DNA from: Bacteroidota bacterium
Lineage (GTDB): Bacteria; Bacteroidota; Bacteroidia; 2-12-FULL-35-15
Assembly (NCBI GenBank): GCA_947449315.1
Contig: CANFRC010000012.1
Span: 5,842 to 69,841 of the forward strand
Length of the DNA: 64,000 nucleotides
Direction: 5' to 3'
Positions within the stretch are counted from its first letter, which is position 1, and each line of letters begins with the position of its first letter. The position numbers and the translations under genes were made by a program. Of the stretch, positions 1 through 44,661 are shown in pieces. The notes beneath the pieces were generated by a model. That model searched no databases and had not been told where the DNA came from. It worked only from the letters and a program-made list of their open reading frames with translations.

Positions 1-2203
1 AATCAAGCCCACCATTAACCGCGCTTGTTCCTGAAGCAGTACCATTAGCTTTTCCTGTTGAACTTAATGCTCCAGGGTAGGTTGTTGTTTCATCAATATA
101 ATACGTTGTAGTAGTTCCTATTGTTGGGGTTGTATAACTTGTACCTGTTCCTACTGATGATCCACCTGTTGAAGCAGTGTACCAATTGATAGTTCCACCT
201 GAACCAGCAGCACCTAAATTAAATGAAGCAGGGCCAGGACCCGCAGCGCCAGTTCCAGTTGGAGCAGGAGCCGCTAATATAGAAACTACAGCAGGTGTTG
301 CTGTCCAGTTTTGACAAAGACCTGTAGTCGTTAATGAATAAGTACCTGTAGTTGTAGGGCTAATTGATTGTGTTGTTGCAGTGAACCCGCTTGGGCCTGT
401 CCAGCTATATGCTGATGCAGAAGAGCTTGTCAGTGTCAGTGTTCCTGCACATGAATTAGCGCCTGAAGTTGTTACTGTAGGGGTTTCATTCGGATTCAAT
501 ACTGTTGTTACCATTGGAGAAATGTTTGAACAACCCGCAGCACTTGTAACTTGTACGCTGTAGTTTCCAGTAGTTGATGCAACTAAAGAAGATGTTGTTG
601 CTCCATTGGACCATAAATAAGAAGTGTAACCAGATGCAGCATTTAATGTTACTGAACCTGCAGTACAGAATGCGTATGGTCCAGGTATTACGTTCCCCGT
701 AATAGTACATCCCCCTTCAACCACAGTAACAAATTGATCAGCAATCAAGGAACCTAAATTAGTTACAGTTCCGGAAGGCCAAGTAATAGTTGCAGTTGTA
801 ATACTGGTGTTAGCACCTAATCCAAAATGTACTTGTAATGAGTTAGAAGTGCCATATGTTTCTCCAGATCTAACTTCACGAACCTGAGTTCCAAAAGCAC
901 CTGTAATCGTTACTTTAGCACCTATTGCATTTTGATTACTAGCCACACCCGTTAAATCGAAATTGATAAAGTGGTTACTGTTTTTATTGTTCATCCACAA
1001 TACGTCAGCAGTTCCTGTTGGTGTATTATAAACGTTACCATAAGAAGCAACTAAGTCAACAGCTCCATCATGGTTAAGATCTCCAGTTGCAAATGATAAG
1101 AAAGAAGTCATTCCTCCTCCAAAAACACCGCTAACAGATGTATATGTTCCGTCGTGATTGTTATGATACATTACTAACCCAGGACCAGAAATTAATATAT
1201 CTAACCAGCCATCGTTATCAAAATCCTCAACAACCGATTCAATTGCATCAAAAGATGTGGAAAGACCAGAACCTAAAGTTGCATCTGTGAAAACACCAGA
1301 ACCATTGTTTGTAAAAATTTGACTATTTTCTCCGTGATTGGTTTGTAAAACATCCATATCCCCATCATTATCTAAATCCCCAAAACTAGAAGTCCAAGAT
1401 TGTTTGAAATCTCCAACAGGTTCAATGTTTGTTGATGCTGCGCTTTCTGTGAAAACGCCCGCTCCGTTATTTTTGAATAAACGATCTCTTCTTCTTTGAT
1501 CAGTATAACTAGATGTGGATTGACGGCAATGTGCAATGTATAAATCCAAGTCTCCATCGTTATCAATATCCAACCAAACACTTCCGTAGTTTCCAGAATC
1601 GTATGGGTCACCTCCATAAGTCAAACCTGGATTTATATTCGTGTTGATTAAAGTAGTAGTCAAGGCCAATGTGCCTGTATTGTTTTTGTATATTTTCATG
1701 TAATCGTTGTCATCACAAACAGCCAAATCACACCATCCATCGTTATCAAAATCACCAAACGTGATATTTTGAACGAAGTAAGAACCACTTAATGTGGTTG
1801 TAGTTTTAGCTATTGTGCTTCCTGTCCATGATAATTTTACTAAATACATCACTCCGTTTACTCCCGTTGCAACATCTTTCCAGCCGTTGTGATCAACATC
1901 AGCAACAGCCATACCCCAAACATGCGTTCCGGTAGAAGCTGTAATTAATCCTAAATTGTAATGGGTGTAAGTTCCATTTTGGTTTTGCATTTGAACAACC
2001 AAAGTAGATGCCTGATCCATTTTAACAATGTCATCAAGACCATCATTATTAATATCAGCTACTGAAATTGCGCAACCACTATGCGTAGCGGTTGGTGTTA
2101 AGCTGTTCATGTTTGTAAATGCAAATTGTGCATTGGTGCTAAGTGCGCCTAACACACAAACACAAGCAATTGCAAACGATTTGTAAATTGTAGTTTGTTT
2201 CAT
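1..2203 (-). CDS. Secreted FG-GAP/VCBS beta-propeller + ASPIC/UnbV (CRTAC1-like) protein with Ig-like repeats; runs off the window start, probable T9SS cargo
   Basis: Not in the ORF track; translated by hand from ATG at 2203: signal peptide MKQTTIYKSFAIACVCVLGALSTNAQ. Seven Dx(N/D)x(D/N)G Ca-binding motifs (DINNDG, DVDHNG, DFDNDG, DIDNDG, DLDNDG, DFDNDG, DLNHDG). UnbV-like NAIGAKVTI...QVREVRSG...VHFGLG...ITWPSG. Thr/Ser-rich Ig-like segments (YLWSNG, INWYTASTGG). Confidence 0.85.
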   Translation of the reverse strand, partial: MKQTTIYKSFAIACVCVLGALSTNAQFAFTNMNSLTPTATHSGCAISVADINNDGLDDIVKMDQASTLVVQMQNQNGTYTHYNLGLITASTGTHVWGMAVADVDHNGWKDVATGVNGVMYLVKLSWTGSTIAKTTTTLSGSYFVQNITFGDFDNDGWCDLAVCDDNDYMKIYKNNTGTLALTTTLINTNINPGLTYGGDPYDSGNYGSVWLDIDNDGDLDLYIAHCRQSTSSYTDQRRRDRLFKNNGAGVFTESAASTNIEPVGDFKQSWTSSFGDLDNDGDMDVLQTNHGENSQIFTNNGSGVFTDATLGSGLSTSFDAIESVVEDFDNDGWLDILISGPGLVMYHNNHDGTYTSVSGVFGGGMTSFLSFATGDLNHDGAVDLVASYGNVYNTPTGTADVLWMNNKNSNHFINFDLTGVASNQNAIGAKVTITGAFGTQVREVRSGETYGTSNSLQVHFGLGANTSITTATITWPSGTVTNLGSLIADQFVTVVEGGCTITGNVIPGPYAFCTAGSVTLNAASGYTSYLWSNGATTSSLVASTTGNYSVQVTSAAGCSNISPMVTTVLNPNETPTVTTSGANSCAGTLTLTSSSASAYSWTGPSGFTATTQSISPTTTGTYSLTTTGLCQNWTATPAVVSILAAPAPTGTGAAGPGPASFNLGAAGSGGTINWYTASTGGSSVGTGTSYTTPTIGTTTTYYIDETTTYPGALSSTGKANGTASGTSAVNGGLD

Positions 2204-2271
2204 GTTCAGTTTGTTTTGAGTTATTTTGTAATTAGATACTAGTTTAGAGATAGATAAAGAAAATGATTTTT

Positions 2272-4221
2272 TTATGATTTTACAACTTTTCGGTAGATTA
2301 TTTTTGAGCCGGTTGTTATCCTTAAATAGTATATACCAGAAATTTGAGGCAGATAAAGTGTAATGGCTGACTGATAGCCTAAATTGGTTAATTCTGTTAC
2401 CTGTTTACCTTCCGAATTAAATACTTCTATTGATTTAATTAAGGTACCGTATTCTGCCTCAACCGAAACCCTCCCATCTATAGATAAAGTAGGCCATACT
2501 TTTATTTCCGACTTAGAAACAGTACTGATATTGGTTGCCAACAAAATAGAATTCAAACTGTCGGATGCTACTAGAACAGGGCTTTGATCTGCTGCTTGAA
2601 ACATCGTTTTGAAGGTATTTACTTCCGGTGTTGTAAAGGTGAAAAGGTTATCCACCCACTTAGGTGGAACTGATTGGTAATACACTTTTGTTTTTACATT
2701 GATGTTTCCAACGGCTCCCGCAAGCGGTACTGCAAAATGCAGATAGTCGATACCGCTGCCTTCAACAGTGCCTACTTTATTGAAGTCGGGGTCTGTTTCT
2801 GCATCTGCAGAACTTTTTACGGTATCATAAATAGGAGGGGCAGAGGTGAATCCTACAGGAGGAATTCGGTTATCTTTTAATAAGATGGCAGCACGCTCTA
2901 AAATAGAAGTGAAATTTCCATTGACATCACCCGGAACCAATTCGTAAATTTGAGAAACATTGGATTGGTTGATTGTATTGTGATGTGGCTCATGATCGGG
3001 GTTCTCCCCGATTACTCGGTATTGATTATTGAAGATCCCTGATTTAAATACCGTATCATTATTAGCATCGGTCACTACAAATTGAACAACGGCTCTTCGC
3101 GTTGGATATCCGGAAGGGAATTTATGACCTGCTTTATTCTCTATTTTTACTTTGAAAAATGCCGAATCGGAAGTGATGCTTTCTAAGGTAAGTTTAAAGT
3201 TAATCGATTTTGACTGAAGCATTGCTTTGGATGCAGAAATCGTTGAGTCGAAATGATTATCCGGAACGTTAACGCCTAAGGCCATTTTATTGCTTTTGAT
3301 CAAACTTAACATAAAAGAATTTGCGCCTGCAAACACATGTTGATTAAAAGGGGTGCGAGGTGTTAATCCCGTAAATCCATTTGCAATAATAATTGCATCA
3401 GTAACTTGAGGCATGTGACATGTCTGACATTTTATATTATTACCAGGGTAATTCGAATTTTTATATTCATGAAATGTGGCTTGCTCAGTAAAATATCCTC
3501 CTGTTGAAACACCAAAAGTATCCACTGTTTGTGTGATTAAAGTATGGCAGGCTGAACATAATTTCGATTGGTCCATATGAGGGCTGTACGTAGGTGTAAA
3601 ACCTTCATACAATTGCATAGGACCAACAGAAGGTGCGGTGAACGGACCATATTCTACAAGTGATGTATCGAATGGGATGTTACCAGAAAAAGTAAATCCA
3701 ACATTCGGAGAAATCGTATGGCATGCTGCGCAGGATACACCATCCAGACCTAGCGAATCTGTAACGAGTTCAGCTAGGGTATAATGTGTATTGCCATGAA
3801 ATTTAGAAGTAAAACTTCCTAATGGGGCATGGCAATCCAAACATTTATTTTGAAGGTCGCCTGCATGTGCCGGGTTAACGGTTATTTCCTGACTTACTTT
3901 TGCTCTCCAAAAAGGGTCTTTAGCACTCAATGCCATCATAGAACTTTCCCATCTGTCAACAAGATTTACATCTTCACCTGCTTCATTGATATTCGAGTTG
4001 TGTGCTAAATCGTAACCGTGACAACCTCTGCAGCTGGATGAAGGTAAAAAATATTGACCCGCAGTAATGGGTGCCCGTAAAAGTGTGTCTTGATAAGCCT
4101 TTACCTGTTCCATGGTATGGTAAGTATGGGGAGCGTCTTTTGAAGAAGCTGAATTCAAAAATTTAAATCCTATTGCAAAAGAAACAAGAATACAAATAAT
4201 GGTAATTTTTTTTATGCTCAT
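2272..4221 (-). CDS. Pentaheme c-type cytochrome (c554/c552-like multiheme) with C-terminal T9SS type A sorting domain
   Basis: Five CxxCH motifs (CRGCH, CLDCH, CAACH, CSACH, CQTCH), AGHKFPSG motif, N-terminal hydrophobic signal, C-terminus ...IEVFNSEGKQV...SGIYYLRITTGSKIIYRKVVKS. Confidence 0.85.
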   Translation of the reverse strand: MSIKKITIICILVSFAIGFKFLNSASSKDAPHTYHTMEQVKAYQDTLLRAPITAGQYFLPSSSCRGCHGYDLAHNSNINEAGEDVNLVDRWESSMMALSAKDPFWRAKVSQEITVNPAHAGDLQNKCLDCHAPLGSFTSKFHGNTHYTLAELVTDSLGLDGVSCAACHTISPNVGFTFSGNIPFDTSLVEYGPFTAPSVGPMQLYEGFTPTYSPHMDQSKLCSACHTLITQTVDTFGVSTGGYFTEQATFHEYKNSNYPGNNIKCQTCHMPQVTDAIIIANGFTGLTPRTPFNQHVFAGANSFMLSLIKSNKMALGVNVPDNHFDSTISASKAMLQSKSINFKLTLESITSDSAFFKVKIENKAGHKFPSGYPTRRAVVQFVVTDANNDTVFKSGIFNNQYRVIGENPDHEPHHNTINQSNVSQIYELVPGDVNGNFTSILERAAILLKDNRIPPVGFTSAPPIYDTVKSSADAETDPDFNKVGTVEGSGIDYLHFAVPLAGAVGNINVKTKVYYQSVPPKWVDNLFTFTTPEVNTFKTMFQAADQSPVLVASDSLNSILLATNISTVSKSEIKVWPTLSIDGRVSVEAEYGTLIKSIEVFNSEGKQVTELTNLGYQSAITLYLPQISGIYYLRITTGSKIIYRKVVKS

Positions 4222-4247
4222 AAGCTAACGAAGTAGTAGTTCGATAA

Positions 4248-4255
4248 CAAATATA
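4248..4255 (-). promoter_or_regulatory. Bacteroidota -7 promoter element (TATATTTG) upstream of the cytochrome gene
   Basis: Matches TAnnTTTG, 26 nt upstream of the ATG at 4221. Confidence 0.55.
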
Positions 4256-4293
4256 ACTAATTAACATTAAATTAAAAAGGAAAGTGTATTAAG

Positions 4294-4322
4294 AAAAAAG
4301 TCCCGCTTTTAGCGAGACTTTT
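4294..4322 (-). terminator. Intrinsic terminator after dsbD
   Basis: Minus strand AAAAGTCTCGCT-AAA-AGCGGGACTTTTTT: hairpin plus U-tract. Confidence 0.75.
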
Positions 4323-4327
4323 ACTAA

Positions 4328-6445
4328 TTATTTGCCTGTTCGTTTTTTGAATTCTGTAATTGCATCATTCATCCAATTGGCGTATTCTTTAATATCTGGC
4401 TTGTATCCTCTAATAGGAGCGAGAAGTTTTTCATCGTTGTCTAAAAGAACATATAATGGTTGAGCTAACTGCTTATATAATGTCTCTTCAGAATATTTGA
4501 ATTTGTCACCAATAGTAGTTATTTGACGTTTTTCTCCATACCAAAAAACATCCATATAGTCTTTAGGGTCTAATTCCCTTTTATCATCTACATATAAAGA
4601 AACAAGAACAACATCGTTATTTAATTTACTTGTTATTTCAGGATCAGGCCAAACATAATCTTCTGTTTTTCTGCAGTTAGCGCAAGCATGTCCTGTGAAG
4701 TCTACCAATAATGGTTTCCCAACTTTTTTTGCATAAGCTAATGCATGTGCATAATCATTTTTGAATAGTACAATTCCGTTTTTATTTACTTCTATATAAG
4801 CAGCAAATTCTGGGTCAAATGAATTGTTTTGATTTGAATTTGCTGAGCTAGTTGAACCAAATCCATGCGGAGATTCAGAGTATTCAAGTGGCGGAAGTAT
4901 TCCACTGAATAATTTTAATGGAGCACCCCATAATCCTGGTACTAAATAAAGTGTAACTGATAGGAAAAGGGTAGCGATAAAAATTCTGGTTACAGATAAA
5001 TGTTTTATTTCACTGTCGTGTGCTGTTTTAAATCCACCTAGTAAATAGATAGAGGCCAAGCCAAATATAACAACCCATAAAGTGATAAATACTTCTCTTG
5101 TTAAAATACCTAATTGGTAGGTAAGGTCAACGTTAGAAGCAAATTTGAATGCTAATGCAAGTTCAAGAAAACCTAAAACAACTTTTATTGAATTGAGCCA
5201 TCCACCACTTTTAGGCATCGAATTAAGCATTGAAGGGAAAAAGGCAAACAGTCCGAAAGGGAATGCTAGTCCTGTGGAGAATCCAAGCATCGCCCAAAAT
5301 GCTCCAGCTTTATTCCCTGAATTAGAGGCGGCTACCAATGCGTTTGATACCATTGGACCTGTACAAGAAAATGAAATAACCACTAGGGCAAGTGCCATAA
5401 AAAATATTCCTAAAAATCCTCCTCTGTCGCCTTGCGCGTCAATTTTATTTACAAATGAAGAAGGCAGGGTAATTTCAAATGCACCAAGAAATGATGCTGC
5501 AAAAACTAAAAGCAAAATAAAAATCGCCAGGTTGAAAGGAGCACCTGTGGAAAAGGAATTTAGTTTGTTTCCTATAAGCAATCCAAGTACAACAAAAATG
5601 ACGATGATAGAAAAGGAGTATAATAATGCGTTTATTTTACCCTTCGCTTTTGTTTTACTTCTTTTTAAAAAGAAACTTACATTCATTGGAATCAAAGGGA
5701 ATACGCATGGTGTGAACAATGCTAAGAAACCCCATATTAAACCGGTAATAAATATTGACCACCAAGGTTTTCCTTCAATTGCAGTCTCATCATTAGATGT
5801 TGAAAATGTTTTAGCTTTCGAAGTAGATTCAACTTTATTTGATGAATCTACTTTTATTTCTGAAGTTGACTTTTTTGAATTAAAGGCTTTCGCAACAGCT
5901 TCGGAATCGATTGTTAATTGCGTGGCTGCTGTATTTGTTTCAACAGGAACTAATTTTACACCTTTACCAAGGCAATCTGCAGTACCTTTAAATTTGAATT
6001 CAAAAGGTGTAGCAGGAGGAAATATACATTTCTCTTCAGTGCATGTTTGATATTCGTATTTACCTTTTACTGTAATCTCCTTATTCGCATTTAATTTTAT
6101 TTTTTGTTTAAAAACAACTGTTTTTTCAAAATAGGCAACCTCCATTTCAAAAACTTTGTCAAAGGTTTTGATTGGCTTTCCTTCTGTTGGTTTTCCTTCA
6201 GCAGAATAATCAGGGCTTTTATCAATGAAGATATTTGCGGGCATTGGGCCGTCGTCGCCTTTCTTTGTTAACGAGTACACATGCCAGTTTTCTTGAATAG
6301 TGCCTGTGAATTGTAATTCGTATTCACAGTCGCTTAATTTTTTGCTCGATAATTTCCAGGTAACAGGATTATCAATTTGGGCAATGGCATTCGTGAAAAT
6401 AATGCTACCAATAAACAATAAAAACAATTTGAAAATATTCTTCAT
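4328..6445 (-). CDS. dsbD: Thiol:disulfide interchange protein DsbD (N-terminal domain + CcdA-like membrane domain + thioredoxin domain)
   Basis: CTEEKC pair in the N-domain, TPCVFP and SCTGP membrane cysteines, PKSGGWLN motif, DFTGHACANCRK thioredoxin CxxC. Confidence 0.9.
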   Translation of the reverse strand: MKNIFKLFLLFIGSIIFTNAIAQIDNPVTWKLSSKKLSDCEYELQFTGTIQENWHVYSLTKKGDDGPMPANIFIDKSPDYSAEGKPTEGKPIKTFDKVFEMEVAYFEKTVVFKQKIKLNANKEITVKGKYEYQTCTEEKCIFPPATPFEFKFKGTADCLGKGVKLVPVETNTAATQLTIDSEAVAKAFNSKKSTSEIKVDSSNKVESTSKAKTFSTSNDETAIEGKPWWSIFITGLIWGFLALFTPCVFPLIPMNVSFFLKRSKTKAKGKINALLYSFSIIVIFVVLGLLIGNKLNSFSTGAPFNLAIFILLLVFAASFLGAFEITLPSSFVNKIDAQGDRGGFLGIFFMALALVVISFSCTGPMVSNALVAASNSGNKAGAFWAMLGFSTGLAFPFGLFAFFPSMLNSMPKSGGWLNSIKVVLGFLELALAFKFASNVDLTYQLGILTREVFITLWVVIFGLASIYLLGGFKTAHDSEIKHLSVTRIFIATLFLSVTLYLVPGLWGAPLKLFSGILPPLEYSESPHGFGSTSSANSNQNNSFDPEFAAYIEVNKNGIVLFKNDYAHALAYAKKVGKPLLVDFTGHACANCRKTEDYVWPDPEITSKLNNDVVLVSLYVDDKRELDPKDYMDVFWYGEKRQITTIGDKFKYSEETLYKQLAQPLYVLLDNDEKLLAPIRGYKPDIKEYANWMNDAITEFKKRTGK

Positions 6446-38652: not shown

Positions 38653-39636
38653 ATGAAAAAAACCCTTATTCTAATTGCATTCTCTATTACTGGTTTGGTT
38701 ACTTTTGCTCAGCAAGATGCCCAGTTCAGTATGAATATGTTTAATCGTTTGGCTGTGAATCCGGGTTATGCGGGTACCAATCAGGCATTATGTGCAACAT
38801 TGTTGTATCGCGATCAGTGGGACAAGTTTCCAGGGGCTCCTAAAACAGGGTTATTAAGCATCGATTACGGCGAATTTTTCAATGGGCATGCCGGAGCAGG
38901 TTTAACTGTTGACCAAGATCTTATCGGATTTGATAAAACGTTAAAAGCCAAAGCGGCATTTTCTTATCATTTGCCGTTGGGTACTGGAGGTATATTGGGT
39001 ATTGGATTAGACGCTGGAATGATTAGTAAATCATTGTCAGGAAATTTTATTGCTCCTGATGGAACTTCCAGAGATACTGGGGGAGGAACTGATAACGCTA
39101 TTCCATGGTCTGGTGCTTCTGCTACGACTTATGATGTTGGATTCGGATTGTATTATACGAGCAAGAATTTATATGTCGGTTTGTCTTCTTTGCATTTGCC
39201 ACAACAAACATTGACAAAAGCTGATGGTACAAAACCTGCAACGGCTACAATAAATTCAAAATATTATGATTTTACATATGAAGTGGCTCGTCACTATTAT
39301 GTTATGGCAGGGTATACATTTCATTTAAATCCACAATTCGAGTTAACGCCTTCTATATTAACTAAATCGGACGCATCCTCTACACAGTTAGATATTAATT
39401 TGATGGCTAAGTGGAATAGAATGGTGTTTGTAGGAGCTTCTTATCGATTGACAGACGCAATTCCTGTTTTTGCAGGCGTTGAATGGAATGGGTTTAAATT
39501 AGGTTATGCTTACGATATAACCCTGTCTAATATTAAATCATATAGCAGTGGAACGCATGAATTAATGTTAGGATATTGTCATAAATTCATACCACCTGTC
39601 CATAAAACAGGCCATATGAACGTGAGATTTATATAA
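38653..39636 (+). CDS. porP: T9SS outer-membrane barrel, PorP/SprF family
   Basis: AQQDAQFS, NPGYAG, YRDQW, GYAYD, GTHELMLGY; directly upstream of gldK. Confidence 0.92.
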   Translation: MKKTLILIAFSITGLVTFAQQDAQFSMNMFNRLAVNPGYAGTNQALCATLLYRDQWDKFPGAPKTGLLSIDYGEFFNGHAGAGLTVDQDLIGFDKTLKAKAAFSYHLPLGTGGILGIGLDAGMISKSLSGNFIAPDGTSRDTGGGTDNAIPWSGASATTYDVGFGLYYTSKNLYVGLSSLHLPQQTLTKADGTKPATATINSKYYDFTYEVARHYYVMAGYTFHLNPQFELTPSILTKSDASSTQLDINLMAKWNRMVFVGASYRLTDAIPVFAGVEWNGFKLGYAYDITLSNIKSYSSGTHELMLGYCHKFIPPVHKTGHMNVRFI

Positions 39637-39762
39637 AATAATCATTTTTTTGTAACCTTAAATTTTTAGTCTCGTTTAAGCTACTCTATTTGCTCTCAGA
39701 ATCATCATACTCAGGTGTGATGATTTTCTAACAAAAAGGGGTTTAATATAAAAACAACAAAT

Positions 39763-41214
39763 ATGAAAAAGTTGCTCTTGTTAAGTTCTATCGTTGCTCT
39801 CTTTAGTATGACCAGTTGTACTAAAAACACTGGTGAACTTTTAGGTGTTCAGCGACGTGCTGAGTGGTTCGATATCGATCCTTTTGGTATGTTGTACATT
39901 CCAATGGGAAGTTACAATATGGGACCAAGTGATGAGGATACTCCTTATGCTCACACTACCAAGTCTAAAACAGTTTCTGTTCAAGCATTTTACATTGATC
40001 AGACTGAAATTTCAAACAATGAATATCGTCAGTTTGTTTATTGGGTGAAAGACTCCATTGCTCATCGTGCTTTATTTGAAGATGGAAGAGCCGAGCATGG
40101 GATTGAAACGGATGACTATGATCAGCCAATTGATCCTCCATTGGTAAATTTTGACGAGAATATCGGTTATGATGAAACAGATGTGCGTGAGGTTCTTGAG
40201 TTTATGTACTTACCAGTAGAAGAAAGATTCTACAAGCGCAGAGAAATTGACTCCCGTAAATTAAATTTTGAATACTATTGGATCAATTTGCGCTTAGCGG
40301 CTCAGAAATCGAATCGTTTCAAACCTTCAAAATCTCCAGATGATAAAGGCCGCGATTTTATCAATGGCTACCAAAATACTAGTGTTGGCGACAATAAAAC
40401 ATTGGGTCACTATGACGTAAAAGATGGTGTTTCTGATGGAAACGGTAACTACAGCACTCGTGAACAAAAAGATAAAGACAGAAGCGTGTTTATTGTAAAA
40501 GATGTGATCAATGTTTACCCAGATACTTTGGCTTGGGTGCATGATTTCACATACTCTTTTAACGAGCCTATGACGAATATGTATTTCTGGCACCCTGCTT
40601 ACGATGATTACCCTGTGGTTGGTGTTAGCTGGAAACAAGCAAGATCATTTTGTATATGGAGAACTCAATTATTTAACAATTGGTTGGTTGGAAATGGCCA
40701 ATCCTACCTAAATGATTTTCGTTTGCCTACTGAATCAGAATGGGAATATGCTGCTCGAGGCGGAAATGCTTTAAGCCCTTACCCTTGGGGAGGTCCTTAT
40801 ATCAGAAATGCTCTTGGGTGTTTCTTAGGAAACTTCAAACCAATGCGCGGTAGTTATATTGATGACGGAGGTTTTCATACTGTGAAAATTGCAGCGTATA
40901 ATCCAAATGATTACGGTTTATATTGTATGGCAGGTAATGCAGCTGAATGGACCAGCAATGCTTTTGATGAGTCAGCGTACGACTTTAGTCACGATTTAAA
41001 CCCCGATTACGTTTATGAAGCTCAAGATAATGAAGCGAATGTTTTGAAACGTAAAGTTATCAGAGGAGGTTCTTGGAAAGATGTTGGTTATTACTTGCAA
41101 ACAAGTACTAGAACTTATGAATATCAAGATACAGCAAAATGTTACGTTGGGTTCCGTTGTGTTCAAACATATCTTGGTCGTAACATGGGTGATGCCCCAG
41201 GCGAAGGATTTTAA
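39763..41214 (+). CDS. gldK: T9SS/gliding lipoprotein GldK (PorK)
   Basis: Lipobox MTSC; FGE-sulfatase fold (YPVVGVSW, RLPTESEWEYAARGG, RGGSW, GFRCV); YFWHPAY. Confidence 0.95.
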   Translation: MKKLLLLSSIVALFSMTSCTKNTGELLGVQRRAEWFDIDPFGMLYIPMGSYNMGPSDEDTPYAHTTKSKTVSVQAFYIDQTEISNNEYRQFVYWVKDSIAHRALFEDGRAEHGIETDDYDQPIDPPLVNFDENIGYDETDVREVLEFMYLPVEERFYKRREIDSRKLNFEYYWINLRLAAQKSNRFKPSKSPDDKGRDFINGYQNTSVGDNKTLGHYDVKDGVSDGNGNYSTREQKDKDRSVFIVKDVINVYPDTLAWVHDFTYSFNEPMTNMYFWHPAYDDYPVVGVSWKQARSFCIWRTQLFNNWLVGNGQSYLNDFRLPTESEWEYAARGGNALSPYPWGGPYIRNALGCFLGNFKPMRGSYIDDGGFHTVKIAAYNPNDYGLYCMAGNAAEWTSNAFDESAYDFSHDLNPDYVYEAQDNEANVLKRKVIRGGSWKDVGYYLQTSTRTYEYQDTAKCYVGFRCVQTYLGRNMGDAPGEGF

Positions 41215-41265
41215 TTTGTATTCTCTAAACTAAACAATAATAAATTAAATTTTAAACTTAAAATT

Positions 41266-42045
41266 ATGGGTGGTAAAAAATGGAAAAGTTTCATGGCCAA
41301 ATTGTATGGATTTGGTGCAGCAATCGTTATCGTTGGAGCGATGTTTAAAATTATGCACTGGCCTGGTGCAGGACCGATGCTTGTTGTTGGTCTATCTACA
41401 GAGGCCGTAATCTTCTTTTTCTCCGCGTTTGAGCCACCACATGAAGAGGTGGATTGGAGTTTGGTGTATCCTGAATTAGCAGGTATGCACGGTGAAGAAG
41501 GTGATCACGCAGGAATTGAAGACAAAGGTACCTTAACAGAACAATTAGATACAATGCTTGAAGATGCTAAGATTGGGCCGGAATTAATTGCTAGTCTTGG
41601 TGCAGGTATGCGCAGTCTTAGTGATCAAGCAGGAAAATTAAATAATATTACTGACGCTTCAGTCGCTACAAGTGATTATGTATCCAGTGTAAAGTCTGCA
41701 TCTAAAAACGTAGATTCATTGTCAAATGCATATTCTAAAGCAGCTGAATCTTTGATGGGTCTTGCTGTTAGCGGTGATGATAGCTCAAATTTGGGTGATC
41801 AAATCAGCAAAGTAGCGAAAAATCTTTCTGCGTTGAATGCTTCATACGAATTGCAATTGCAAGGTTCTGGTGAGCATTTGAAAGCTACATCTAGATTCTA
41901 CGGTGGACTTGAAGAATTGATGAAAAATCTTAACGACTCAGTAGATGATACTAAGAAGTATAAAGATCAAATCTCTCAACTTTCTTCTAATTTAGAATCG
42001 TTGAATACAATTTACGGTAACATGCTTACCGCAATGAGAAAATAA
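41266..42045 (+). CDS. gldL: T9SS/gliding motor subunit GldL (PorL)
   Basis: YGFGAAIVIVGAMFKIMHW, TEAVIF, DWSLVYPEL, YGNMLTAM. Confidence 0.96.
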   Translation: MGGKKWKSFMAKLYGFGAAIVIVGAMFKIMHWPGAGPMLVVGLSTEAVIFFFSAFEPPHEEVDWSLVYPELAGMHGEEGDHAGIEDKGTLTEQLDTMLEDAKIGPELIASLGAGMRSLSDQAGKLNNITDASVATSDYVSSVKSASKNVDSLSNAYSKAAESLMGLAVSGDDSSNLGDQISKVAKNLSALNASYELQLQGSGEHLKATSRFYGGLEELMKNLNDSVDDTKKYKDQISQLSSNLESLNTIYGNMLTAMRK

Positions 42046-42097
42046 TAGTTCCTACGAACTATTAGGTTTCAATAATGGAGAGTAATCTCCATTATTG
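42043..42097 (+). other. Two tandem RNA hairpins in the gldL-gldM spacer
   Basis: TAATAGTTC-CTAC-GAACTATTA and CAATAATGGAGA-GTAA-TCTCCATTATTG; no U-tract follows. Confidence 0.7.
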
Positions 42098-42139
42098 CTC
42101 ATTTAATTAATATTAATCTAAAAAAACTAATATAACAAT

Positions 42140-43768
42140 ATGTCAGGAGGCAAAGAAACCCCAAGGCAGAAGATGATTGGTATGATGTACCTGGTGTTAA
42201 CAGCACTTTTGGCGCTAAACGTATCAAAAGAGATTCTGAATGCCTTCGTTATCGTTGAGAGTGGTTTGAATAATACCAACGATAACTTCGATGGAAAAAA
42301 TGGAGTATTATATTCCAAGTTTGAGAAGGCAATGGCTGATAATAAAGTGAAAACAGAACCTTGGTACAAAAAGGCTTTGGAAGTAAAAAAATCGGCTGCT
42401 GAACTTTGTAAAATGGTTGATGATATCCGATCTGAATTATACTTAGAAGTTCAAAAGCTTCCTGATAAATCAGTGGCTGATACCTTTAAATTAGCGCAAT
42501 TAGACAGTAAAGATAACTATGACATTCCTACCCATGCTTTACTAGGTGCAACACCTGAAGAGCCAGGTGCGGATGCAAAAATTATTCCTTTGAAAAAAGC
42601 GATAATTGCTTTCAGGCAAAAAATGATGGATATAGTTCCTGCGAAAGAAAAAGCTGGTCTTAAATTAGGTTTAAGTACAGAGGATGTATATTCACTTAAT
42701 GATGAGAAAAAAGTTTCTTGGGAGTATAACAACTTTGACCATACCACTATGGCTGCTGATATGTGTATTTTTGCAGGTATCAAAAATGACATTAAAAATG
42801 CAGAAAGTGATGTTGTTGGAATCTTGTTAAAAGCAATCACTGCAGAGGATTTTTCTTTTGATGCTGTAGAAGCAAAAGTGGTGGCAAATGCGAACTACGT
42901 AACTGCTGGTGAAGATTACACAGCAGACATATTTGTTTCGGCTCACAGTTCCACTCAAAATCCTGAAATTGTTATTGGAAATGTTGATACAACTACAAAA
43001 GATGCTAAACTTGTTGGTACCGGAACACCAGTTCCTGTTACTGCGGGTGTCGGAAAATATGTTGTTCATACAGGTTCTGAAGGAGATCAAGAGTATAGTG
43101 GTGTTATCAATGTGAAAGCACCGGACGGTTCTGTAAAACCATATCCATTTCATGGTAAATATACAGTTGCTAAACCATCTATGGCAGTTTCTCCAACTAA
43201 AATGAATGTGTTTTATATTGGTGTAGACAATCCGGTAGATATTTCAGTGGCAGGAACTGCTCCAATGGATGTTTCTGCAACGTTGAGTGGCGGAAGCGGT
43301 ACGATTAAGTCCTTAGGCGGCGGACACTACATTGTTAGCGTAAAGTCTGGTGATGCAAAAGGAATGATTAATGTGAACGTTTCTAAGAAAACAAAAGATG
43401 GTAATAAATCTGCTGGTCCTCCTATGGTTTTCCGTGTTAAAAAAGTACCAAGTCCTCAAGCTTCATTTGCTGGAGTGGTAGGTGATGGAAAAGTAAGTAA
43501 AGGAGAAATCATGAGTGCAGGTGGTGTGATTCCAAAATTGGAAGATTTCGTTTTCGATTTAAAATTCCCAGTAGTTTCTTGGAATATGTCTGTATTTGTG
43601 AATGGTGTATTCGTTGATTATACCGCTCAAGGTGCTAGTTGTACTGGAGCAATGAAGGAGATTATGGCTAAGGTGAAAACGGGTCAAAAAGTGTTGATCG
43701 AGGAAGTGAAGGTTCAGTGTCCTGATGGAGTTAGGAAAATTGTTGGTTGTGTTCTAAAAATTAAATAA
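42140..43768 (+). CDS. gldM: T9SS/gliding motor subunit GldM (PorM)
   Basis: PRQKMIGMMYLVLTALLALNVS, KMNVFYIGVDNP. Confidence 0.96.
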   Translation: MSGGKETPRQKMIGMMYLVLTALLALNVSKEILNAFVIVESGLNNTNDNFDGKNGVLYSKFEKAMADNKVKTEPWYKKALEVKKSAAELCKMVDDIRSELYLEVQKLPDKSVADTFKLAQLDSKDNYDIPTHALLGATPEEPGADAKIIPLKKAIIAFRQKMMDIVPAKEKAGLKLGLSTEDVYSLNDEKKVSWEYNNFDHTTMAADMCIFAGIKNDIKNAESDVVGILLKAITAEDFSFDAVEAKVVANANYVTAGEDYTADIFVSAHSSTQNPEIVIGNVDTTTKDAKLVGTGTPVPVTAGVGKYVVHTGSEGDQEYSGVINVKAPDGSVKPYPFHGKYTVAKPSMAVSPTKMNVFYIGVDNPVDISVAGTAPMDVSATLSGGSGTIKSLGGGHYIVSVKSGDAKGMINVNVSKKTKDGNKSAGPPMVFRVKKVPSPQASFAGVVGDGKVSKGEIMSAGGVIPKLEDFVFDLKFPVVSWNMSVFVNGVFVDYTAQGASCTGAMKEIMAKVKTGQKVLIEEVKVQCPDGVRKIVGCVLKIK

Positions 43769-43788
43769 CCATAATACGGAGGTATACC

Positions 43789-44661
43789 ATGCAAAAAATT
43801 AAAATTCTTTTATTAGTATCTTTTGTTGCTTTAGCAACAATTGATATCTATGGTCAGGAAGTAATGAGACCACCAAAATATCATGAAGATGGTGTGTACA
43901 AAAAAGAAAACACTCATTCAAGAAAACCTGTTTCTTATCCTACATTGCGTGAAGCAGATGTTATGTGGAGTAAGCGAGTTTGGCGTACGATTGATTTGCG
44001 TGAAAAAATTAACTTCCCTTTGTATTATCCGGATGCTGAAATTGCGGATAGAAAAAGTTTATTTGATGTGATCATTGAGGCTGCAACCAAAACAGGAACA
44101 ATCACTTGTTTTGCTCAACCTGCAACGGATGATGAATTTCATTACGACATGACGAAGAGTGAGGTAGAAGGCATGCTTGTTAAATGGGATTCAACTCATC
44201 AAACGGAAGATCCGAATAGTCCTGGAACAATGATAACAGCTCCAACAAAAAATGTGACTTCCACTGATAAGGTTTGGCAATATTGGATAAAAGAAGATTG
44301 GTTTTTTGATAAGCAGCGTTCTGTTTTAGATGTTCGTATCATTGGTTTATGTCCATTGATTGAGAAGAAAACAGAGTCTGGTGAGTCAACAGGTGCTAGT
44401 ACTCCTTTGTTCTGGATATACTTCCCTGATGCAAGACCTATCTTTGCAAATAATGAGGTGTACATGAGACATAATGATGCTGAGAGAAGAACGTTTGAAG
44501 ATATTTTCTACAAAAGGATGTTCTCTAGTTATGTTCGAAAAGAAAGTAACGTTTATGATAGAGGTATTTATGATTACAAAACAGGCTTAGACCAGTTGTT
44601 GGAATCTGAACGAGTAAAAAATGATATTTTTACTTTTGAGCACGACTTGTTTCATTTCTAA
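43789..44661 (+). CDS. gldN: T9SS/gliding protein GldN (PorN)
   Basis: READVMWSKRVWRTIDLREKINFPLYYP, KEDWFFDKQRS, LFWIYFP. Confidence 0.95.
   Translation: MQKIKILLLVSFVALATIDIYGQEVMRPPKYHEDGVYKKENTHSRKPVSYPTLREADVMWSKRVWRTIDLREKINFPLYYPDAEIADRKSLFDVIIEAATKTGTITCFAQPATDDEFHYDMTKSEVEGMLVKWDSTHQTEDPNSPGTMITAPTKNVTSTDKVWQYWIKEDWFFDKQRSVLDVRIIGLCPLIEKKTESGESTGASTPLFWIYFPDARPIFANNEVYMRHNDAERRTFEDIFYKRMFSSYVRKESNVYDRGIYDYKTGLDQLLESERVKNDIFTFEHDLFHF

Follow-up and report, generated by a model that had tools for sequence, protein, structure and literature searches.

Can the type IX secretion system (T9SS) of the Bacteroidota, the characterised cargo of which consists of hydrolases, adhesins and motility proteins, also carry a multiheme redox protein out of the cell? 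The question is raised by a gene in a 64,000-nucleotide stretch of contig CANFRC010000012.1 (positions 5,842 to 69,841 of the forward strand; assembly GCA_947449315.1, Bacteroidota bacterium), referred to below, at its whole analysed length, as the window. On the minus strand, at positions 2272-4221, it codes for a c-type cytochrome that combines five heme-binding motifs with a C-terminal T9SS sorting domain (CTD). Multiheme cytochromes that work outside the cell are a known feature of metal-respiring Proteobacteria and Desulfobacterota, in which they are exported as lipoproteins and served by porin-cytochrome conduits. The reading favoured here, which we regard as fairly probable, is that the window cytochrome is exported by the T9SS and belongs to an extracellular electron-transfer module, together with a co-exported partner protein that resembles CRTAC1.

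The open reading frame (ORF) of the cytochrome is intact, begins with ATG and codes for 649 aa. The five CxxCH motifs claimed for it in an earlier note on this DNA are present in the translation, at C64, C127, C164, C222 and C265, and all five are invariant (128/128) in an alignment of 128 diverse family members, which served for the family profile, for the conservation counts and for structure prediction. Their number is not a product of chance, since five or more CxxCH motifs occur in just 3 of the 5362 ORFs of at least 60 aa in the six-frame translation of the 2.6-Mb genome. A single cysteine lies outside the motifs, within the N-terminal hydrophobic stretch, and the mature protein has none. 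Candidates for the distal heme ligands are also well conserved, M202, H366 and H413 in all 128 members, H295 in 127, M96 in 123 and H215 in 116. M96 aligns with a histidine of cytochrome c552 from Thermochromatium tepidum (PDB 5ZE8). Together with the conservation of the candidates, this would suggest four bis-His hemes and one heme with a Met ligand, either M96 or M202. Further along the chain lies the hallmark loop of the superfamily, GHKFPSGYPTRR, in which G365, H366, P369, G371, P373 and R375 are invariant in the 128 members and K367 is kept in 126.

The same c552 provides the key to the fold. AlphaFold, given the 128-row alignment, models residues 27-575 with a pLDDT of 93.1 and a pTM of 0.90; given a 30-row alignment of close relatives, it models the heme domain poorly (mean pLDDT 52). 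Foldseek superposes the model on 5ze8 with an E-value of 7.3e-18 and a TM of 0.74 on the target. In the VIA comparison, 5ZE8 matches model residues 27-532 with a Z of 26.9 (rmsd 2.6 Å, 347 of 385 residues aligned, 25% identity), the runner-up reaching a Z of 7.7, and Ig-like sandwiches match model residues 310-538. The family profile matches 5ze8 (E 1.9e-12) as well as the polysulfide reductase MccSep (9wt8, E 3e-6). On the strength of the model and of the profile matches to 5ze8, the core (residues ~50-560) is predicted to have the pentaheme c552/PHC fold, namely a helical cap with five hemes, carried by an Ig-like stem, and the profile match marks the protein as a more distant relative of MccSep/ExtKL. 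The earlier suggestion of a link to cytochromes c554/c552 was thus half right, in that the protein falls in the pentaheme c552/PHC/MccSep fold family.

The last 55-75 residues are recognised as a T9SS type A sorting domain, as had been proposed. TIGR04183, the curated cut-off of which is 23, gives residues 594-648 a score of 30.7 bits and reaches 36.7 bits in a six-frame search of the genome. The match (E <= 0.001) is kept in 29 of 30 orthologues, down to 55% identity. The family profile also finds 8glk_D, a cargo CTD solved with the translocon (E 0.0012 and 0.0027), and matches gingipain CTDs weakly, while a first AlphaFold model gives residues 574-648 seven strands at a pLDDT of ~79-89. Farther from the window cytochrome, 78 distant representatives were scanned, these being the first 78 of 88 that had five CxxCH motifs, the loop motif and a length of 500-720 aa; a T9SS CTD (E <= 0.001) was found in 36 of them and was absent from 42. 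About half of the sequence diversity of the family is T9SS-tagged.

The host encodes a complete T9SS. Its genome (99.8% complete, 27 contigs, 2.6 Mb) codes for SprA, PorV and PorU, and the core genes porP-gldKLMN were located in the window, in line with the earlier note, all five scoring over their NCBIfam cut-offs. Six-frame matches to TIGR04183 number 91 in this genome, 90 of them over the cut-off; 91 type A tags amount to a very large secreted repertoire for 2.6 Mb. Heme attachment is supported as well, by a pair of neighbouring frames that match Cytochrom_C_asm (806 and 227 aa; G000:C1:57976-60298); ResB (PF05140) gave no match in the genome. This would fit maturation of the CcmF/CcmC type (system I) over the ResB/CcsA type.

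The cytochrome gene has a constant companion. Among the 80 best-matching loci, a partner-like gene lies directly 3' of the cytochrome gene in 69; of the remaining 11 loci, the sequence 3' of the gene is scant or missing in 8, and the flanks are full in 3 (L037, L040 and L073). All-against-all clustering of 849 neighbouring ORFs left the partner as the sole family common to more than 6 of the 80 loci. The partner of the window encodes 960 aa, with FG-GAP repeats, UnbV_ASPIC and Ig_7 repeats as well as a conserved domain towards the C-terminus, and has a T9SS type A CTD of its own, which scores 46.7 bits with TIGR04183 and 60.3 bits with PF18962. A T9SS CTD was detected in all 37 partner orthologues scanned (37/37), and the calcium propeller resembles human CRTAC1 (9etn, E 5.7e-15). 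A hairpin scan of the 68-nt spacer between the two genes found no terminator-like hairpin. With such a hairpin before the pair, none between its members, and the synteny across loci, the cytochrome and its partner look like a single transcription unit, the genomic context of which changes as it moves. The functional unit is therefore best described, from gene order, as a conserved pair of a cytochrome and a T9SS-tagged FG-GAP/UnbV propeller; the pair is absent from the earlier note. Prediction of a complex between partner residues 26-505 and cytochrome residues 50-561, using alignments, returned a score of 0.02 and a mark of 0.32, which is no evidence either way.

Within the propeller, partner residues 224-238 (window ~1490-1534, minus strand) include a Cys-Arg-Gln that never varies in the partner family (C226-Q228). 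A conserved His stands before it, and the invariant D235 and R237-R238 come after it. The C226-Q228 pattern looks like a functional site more than a structural repeat.

Starting from the architecture, homology, sorting domain, synteny and machinery for export and heme attachment described above, we infer how the holo-protein is exported, where it ends up, what part it plays in redox chemistry and how it works with the partner. The cytochrome would be made with a Sec signal peptide and so reach the periplasm, where the cytochrome c maturation proteins of the genome would attach the five hemes. Its type A CTD would then hand it to the T9SS, through the SprA translocon, for delivery to the surface or the medium. 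The CRTAC1-like FG-GAP/UnbV protein, a propeller on a stalk, would be co-transcribed and co-exported, and outside the cell the cytochrome would pass electrons beside it.

The nature of the redox chemistry is best judged by comparison with MccSep/ExtKL (GSU2937-2936 of Geobacter sulfurreducens, PDB 9WT8), which shares with the window cytochrome the cap, the Ig stem, the five hemes and the GH..P.G.P loop. The preprint 10.1101/2025.11.18.688581 describes MccSep as a five-heme cap with an Ig stem that reduces polysulfide via selenocysteine U325 and the heme-2 ligand C239, with the assistance of R83 and K372. In the HMMER alignments Sec325 becomes Y372 in the window cytochrome, and C239-C240 become E246-Q247, the latter equivalence falling in a low-scoring stretch. 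Position 372 is occupied by Y in 82 of the 128 members, by F in 29, by I in 15 and by H in 2, and never by Cys; in a wider set, the loop motif occurs in 242 of 271 proteins, with Cys at the Sec position in 0/242. NF040886, the ExtKL equivalog, gives a partial match of 31.1 bits against a cut-off of 250, and a partial match of this kind recurs in 27 of the 30 orthologues and in 69 of the 78 distant representatives. Having neither the Sec or Cys, nor the heme-ligating Cys, nor a score at the level of the equivalog, the window cytochrome is, as judged from its sequence, not a polysulfide reductase of the MccSep type, and because these residues are replaced an electron-transfer module is preferred to such a reductase. 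Another enzyme, extracellular or periplasmic, may nevertheless be built on the same plan, and we hold this to be possible, if rather doubtful: the counterpart of MccSep heme 2 would face a substrate pocket, the walls of which are the invariant Glu-Gln pair together with the GHK..P.G.P.RR loop, and would there reduce or oxidise a small substrate, for instance peroxide, a sulfur or nitrogen oxyanion or a metal ion. The homologous active site of MccSep is built from the same two elements, and E246 and Q247 are invariant (128/128), as is R375 of the loop, with K367 close behind; yet the equivalence of E246 with C239 comes from that one low-scoring HMMER stretch, and the residue at the Sec position, which varies between Y, F, I and H, is therefore not catalytic. 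As the conserved ligand candidates number six and the hemes five, one heme could be differently ligated, whereas T. tepidum c552, the nearest structural match, is not known to have an enzymatic function (10.1101/2023.11.21.568154).

A number of observations weigh against an extracellular electron-transfer module. The sorting domain of the cytochrome is not a strong one: PF18962 gives it 18.2 bits, under the cut-off of 27, the TIGR04183 alignment lacks the first 18 positions of the model, and the score ranks 79 of 91 in the genome. MccSep, the closest characterised relative and a homotetramer, is periplasmic (10.1101/2025.11.18.688581). The pentaheme gene is patchy and not phylum-wide, since in an even sample of the phylum a homologue (E <= 1e-30) was found in 19 of 401 genomes and in 16 of 179 genera. 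Neither the window nor the conserved neighbourhood nor one co-occurrence test revealed a donor or acceptor of electrons or a connection to the cell; neighbourhood clustering of the 80 loci yielded no porin-cytochrome or other conserved redox neighbour, and there is no evident wire to the respiratory chain. The literature searched yielded no experimental or localisation data for any family member. Near-identical DNA occurs in lake and freshwater metagenomes from nine studies, four runs of which may be the source of the assembly. In favour of the module, one contig (record 9) of a lake metatranscriptome, X19, spans window positions 1-2385 and bridges the spacer, four more pieces extend up to position 4037, and a second metatranscriptome, X20, covers parts of the partner gene; X19 contigs are absent over 4124-6076 (the DsbD gene), where missing cover is not evidence. 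These contigs are a hint that the module is transcribed, from libraries that may contain DNA and show neither strand nor level.

Several of these points bear on an alternative in which the holo-cytochrome is periplasmic despite its CTD, like MccSep and c552, being retained there or exported as a minor fraction. We consider this unlikely. The modest CTD score, the location of MccSep and the 42 untagged distant representatives would agree with it, but the CTD is kept in all but one of the 30 orthologues and in 36 of the 78 distant representatives, the partner carries a strong one throughout its scanned orthologues, and a tail of 75 residues, if useless, would not persist across hundreds of species. 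Less probable still is the polymerisation of the exported cytochrome into an extracellular heme filament or 'nanowire'. PMC11976967, citing Baquero et al. 2023, states the proposal that the c552/PHC fold is related to the archaeal nanowire AvECN, and MccSep offers a homotetramer; the window cytochrome, on the other hand, retains a bulky Ig-like stem and a sorting domain, and no nanowire chain is among the 50 structure-search matches listed, a family outside that list being still possible. Export by the T9SS and extracellular electron transfer beside the CRTAC1-like partner remains the reading preferred here.

What such a module might do is indicated by the wider family. Nine longer representatives from other lineages were scanned for fusions. 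In 3 of the 9 (P0222, P0182 and P0237), an N-terminal propeller of the glucose/sorbosone dehydrogenase type (GSDH, PQQ-type) is fused to the cytochrome core, and in one of these three an F5/8 type C domain stands between propeller and core. Of the other long representatives, one has DUF642, TSP_3 and dockerin, one a TauE membrane domain, and one a proprotein-convertase P-domain at 19.6 bits, under the cut-off of 21. The GSDH fusions suggest that an extracellular dehydrogenase can pass its electrons to the pentaheme core. Because the fusions, in other phyla, set the core beside propeller dehydrogenases and extracellular-type modules, carbohydrate-binding ones among them, a bolder reading can be put forward, tentatively and with a good deal of doubt: the module, complete in itself, would enable Bacteroidota living aerobically in fresh water and soil to exchange electrons, in either direction, with substrates beyond the outer membrane, with no porin-cytochrome conduit, the cytochrome acting as the relay of an extracellular propeller protein, and would tie in with oxidative attack on polymers or with metal or oxygen chemistry at the surface. 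An apparent natural fusion of the cytochrome with its partner, P0272 (1556 aa), was rejected as a read-through gene call of an adjacent pair, since the internal CTD and the partner signal peptide are retained.

Pairing with the partner was also sought outside the Bacteroidota and rejected, as a partner-like ORF occurs in 5 of 80 metagenome loci of CTD-less relatives; two of these five score as close relatives of the partner in the window. No other neighbour is common to more than 12 of these 80 loci. In 12 of them (e.g. L132:1896-3035, plus strand), the adjoining gene, upstream and on the same strand in most cases, encodes a class I cytochrome c domain and ~250 residues with no Pfam match. The alternating pattern of this region made us think of an outer-membrane barrel, that is, of a candidate fused cytochrome-porin.

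The family itself is large. It includes 2808 proteins at E <= 0.001 among 7999 candidates scored; clustered at 50% identity, 2747 clusters have E <= 0.001 and 520 have E <= 1e-30. Among 185,579 species, each represented by a single genome, at least 595 of 600 pattern matches were confirmed. The best 120 protein matches are ~650 aa long and few are named, under 'T9SS type A sorting domain-containing protein', 'cytochrome c family protein' or 'hypothetical protein'. The best 80 loci come from metagenome-assembled genomes, labelled nearly all as Bacteroidota, Bacteroidia, Chitinophagales, Flavobacteriales or Saprospiraceae; two carry the label Bifidobacteri-, apparently by mistake. The features of the locus are collected in the table.

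Features of the pentaheme cytochrome, its partner gene and the T9SS core (nucleotide positions of the window unless stated otherwise)
Feature	Position	Strand	Basis
Pentaheme cytochrome with T9SS CTD, 649 aa	2272..4221, stop codon included	(-)	ORF list, translation, family searches
Signal-peptide-like N-terminus, residues 1-25 (KK, hydrophobic core, small-residue c-region)	4147..4221	(-)	Read directly from sequence; modelled helix at residues 3-25
Predicted helical five-heme cap, residues ~50-330	3232..4074	(-)	Invariant motifs; PF22113 33.8 bits, PF14522 29.3 bits; aligned to 5ZE8
CxxCH motifs	4018-4032, 3829-3843, 3718-3732, 3544-3558, 3415-3429	(-)	Translation
Predicted Ig-like beta-sandwich stem, residues ~331-560, with long insertions relative to c552	2542..3231	(-)	AlphaFold pLDDT 93.1; VIA matches
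GHKFPSGYPTRR loop, residues 365-376, superfamily hallmark; Y372 at the position of MccSep U325	3094..3129	(-)	HMMER alignments to 9wt8 and 5ze8
T9SS type A C-terminal sorting domain, residues ~573-649	2275..2505	(-)	TIGR04183, orthologues, 8glk_D match, seven strands
Spacer of 68 nt, cytochrome stop to partner start	2204..2271	(-)	Sequence and hairpin scan
Partner gene, 5' part (734 of 960 codons), runs off the window	1..2203; full gene G000:C12:5162-8044	(-)	Pfam, NCBIfam
TATATTTG box, 27-34 nt upstream of the cytochrome ATG	4248..4255	(-)	Sequence
Terminator-like hairpin, 12 pairs and T run, after the DsbD-like gene	4296..4322	(-)	Scan and sequence
T9SS core porP, gldK, gldL, gldM, gldN, unlinked to the module	38653..44661	(+)	TIGR03519, TIGR03525, TIGR03513, TIGR03517, TIGR03523, over cut-offs

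Upstream of the cytochrome gene, the TATATTTG box fits TAnnTTTG, which we take to be the consensus of the Bacteroidota -7 promoter box, and offers a lead; a sigma-70 promoter scan was uninformative, with 24 sites against 24.3 expected. The gene farther upstream (4328-6445, minus strand) encodes a DsbD-like protein of 705 aa with DsbD_N, DsbD_TM and thioredoxin-like regions. Its membership in the module was considered and rejected, as it lies upstream in only the 4 closest of the 80 loci and is followed by the terminator-like hairpin.

Other proteins of the genome deserve mention beside the module. One further T9SS-tagged protein, of 677 aa, is encoded just outside the window (G000:C12:1222-3255). 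A second T9SS cargo with a heme motif (G000:C13:43414-45081, minus strand; L166:3418-5082) has 555 aa, one CxxCH near the N-terminus and a PF18962 match of 39.1 bits; its cytochrome c matches are weak, and the language-model look-alikes of its middle domain are copper type II ascorbate-dependent monooxygenases (0.81-0.86, a lead). A link between this cargo and the pentaheme protein was unsupported: they occur in 20 and 19 of the 401 genomes, respectively, and share 3, including the genome of the window and a congener. Elsewhere, a protein of 675 aa (G000:C1:179147-181174, minus strand; L083:9148-11175) has seven CxxCH motifs, C-terminal TPR repeats and a lipoprotein-like N-terminus, with partial matches to the GSU2203 and DmsE decaheme models. 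Its neighbours, MltG and phosphoglucosamine mutase, look unrelated, and the protein itself adds one more candidate to the electron carriers of the envelope in this genome.

The fold family and the sorting domain are each already known, and public annotation already tags homologues as T9SS proteins; the combination is not discussed in the literature found. Searches on the T9SS together with multiheme or c-type cytochromes returned nothing relevant among matches judged by title or abstract start, and those on the T9SS and extracellular electron transfer returned just a review of oral outer membrane vesicles, as seen from its title and the start of its abstract. Among T9SS cargo in the literature searched, no redox protein with covalently bound heme was found. 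The earlier statement that no characterised example was known agrees with these searches, in which nothing joined the T9SS to multiheme cytochromes or to extracellular electron transfer. A cargo with covalently bound heme, if confirmed, would mean that the T9SS can carry cofactor-bearing redox proteins, and would bring electron transfer to the cell surface in a phylum generally regarded as one of aerobic polymer degraders. The conserved two-gene module provides a compact and directly testable system in which to pursue this.

Set beside known systems, the window cytochrome stands closest to the low-potential c552 of T. tepidum, which has the same fold, the five CxxCH motifs in the same order and the H..P.G.P.R loop that opens the Ig-like domain. 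The two differ in that c552, a protein of 435 aa from a purple sulfur bacterium, has no sorting domain, whereas the window cytochrome has a core ~160 residues longer and an added T9SS CTD. The c552 protein is called 'of unknown function' in 10.1101/2023.11.21.568154, and the 'PHC' grouping of PMC11976967 includes ExtKL and Gsu2801.

The likeness to MtrC and OmcA of Shewanella is of another order. These are also multiheme c-type cytochromes, and they are displayed outside the outer membrane, where the window cytochrome would lie as well. PF22113, which covers domains II/IV of MtrC/MtrF, matches the window cytochrome with 33.8 bits, barely over its cut-off of 30, and TIGR03507 with 14.4 bits against a cut-off of 209.3; no MtrC or OmcA entry is among the 50 structure-search matches listed, in which 5ZE8 stands first. 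The fold family is different, and MtrC and OmcA are decaheme proteins, compared to five hemes here. Export of MtrC and OmcA, both lipoproteins, takes place through type II secretion, and MtrAB wires them to the cell, whereas the window cytochrome, with no conduit encoded nearby, would leave by the T9SS. In this last respect it resembles the characterised type A cargo of that system, such as the endonuclease of F. johnsoniae (CTD 8GLK) and the gingipains, with which it shares a C-terminal beta-sandwich sorting domain.

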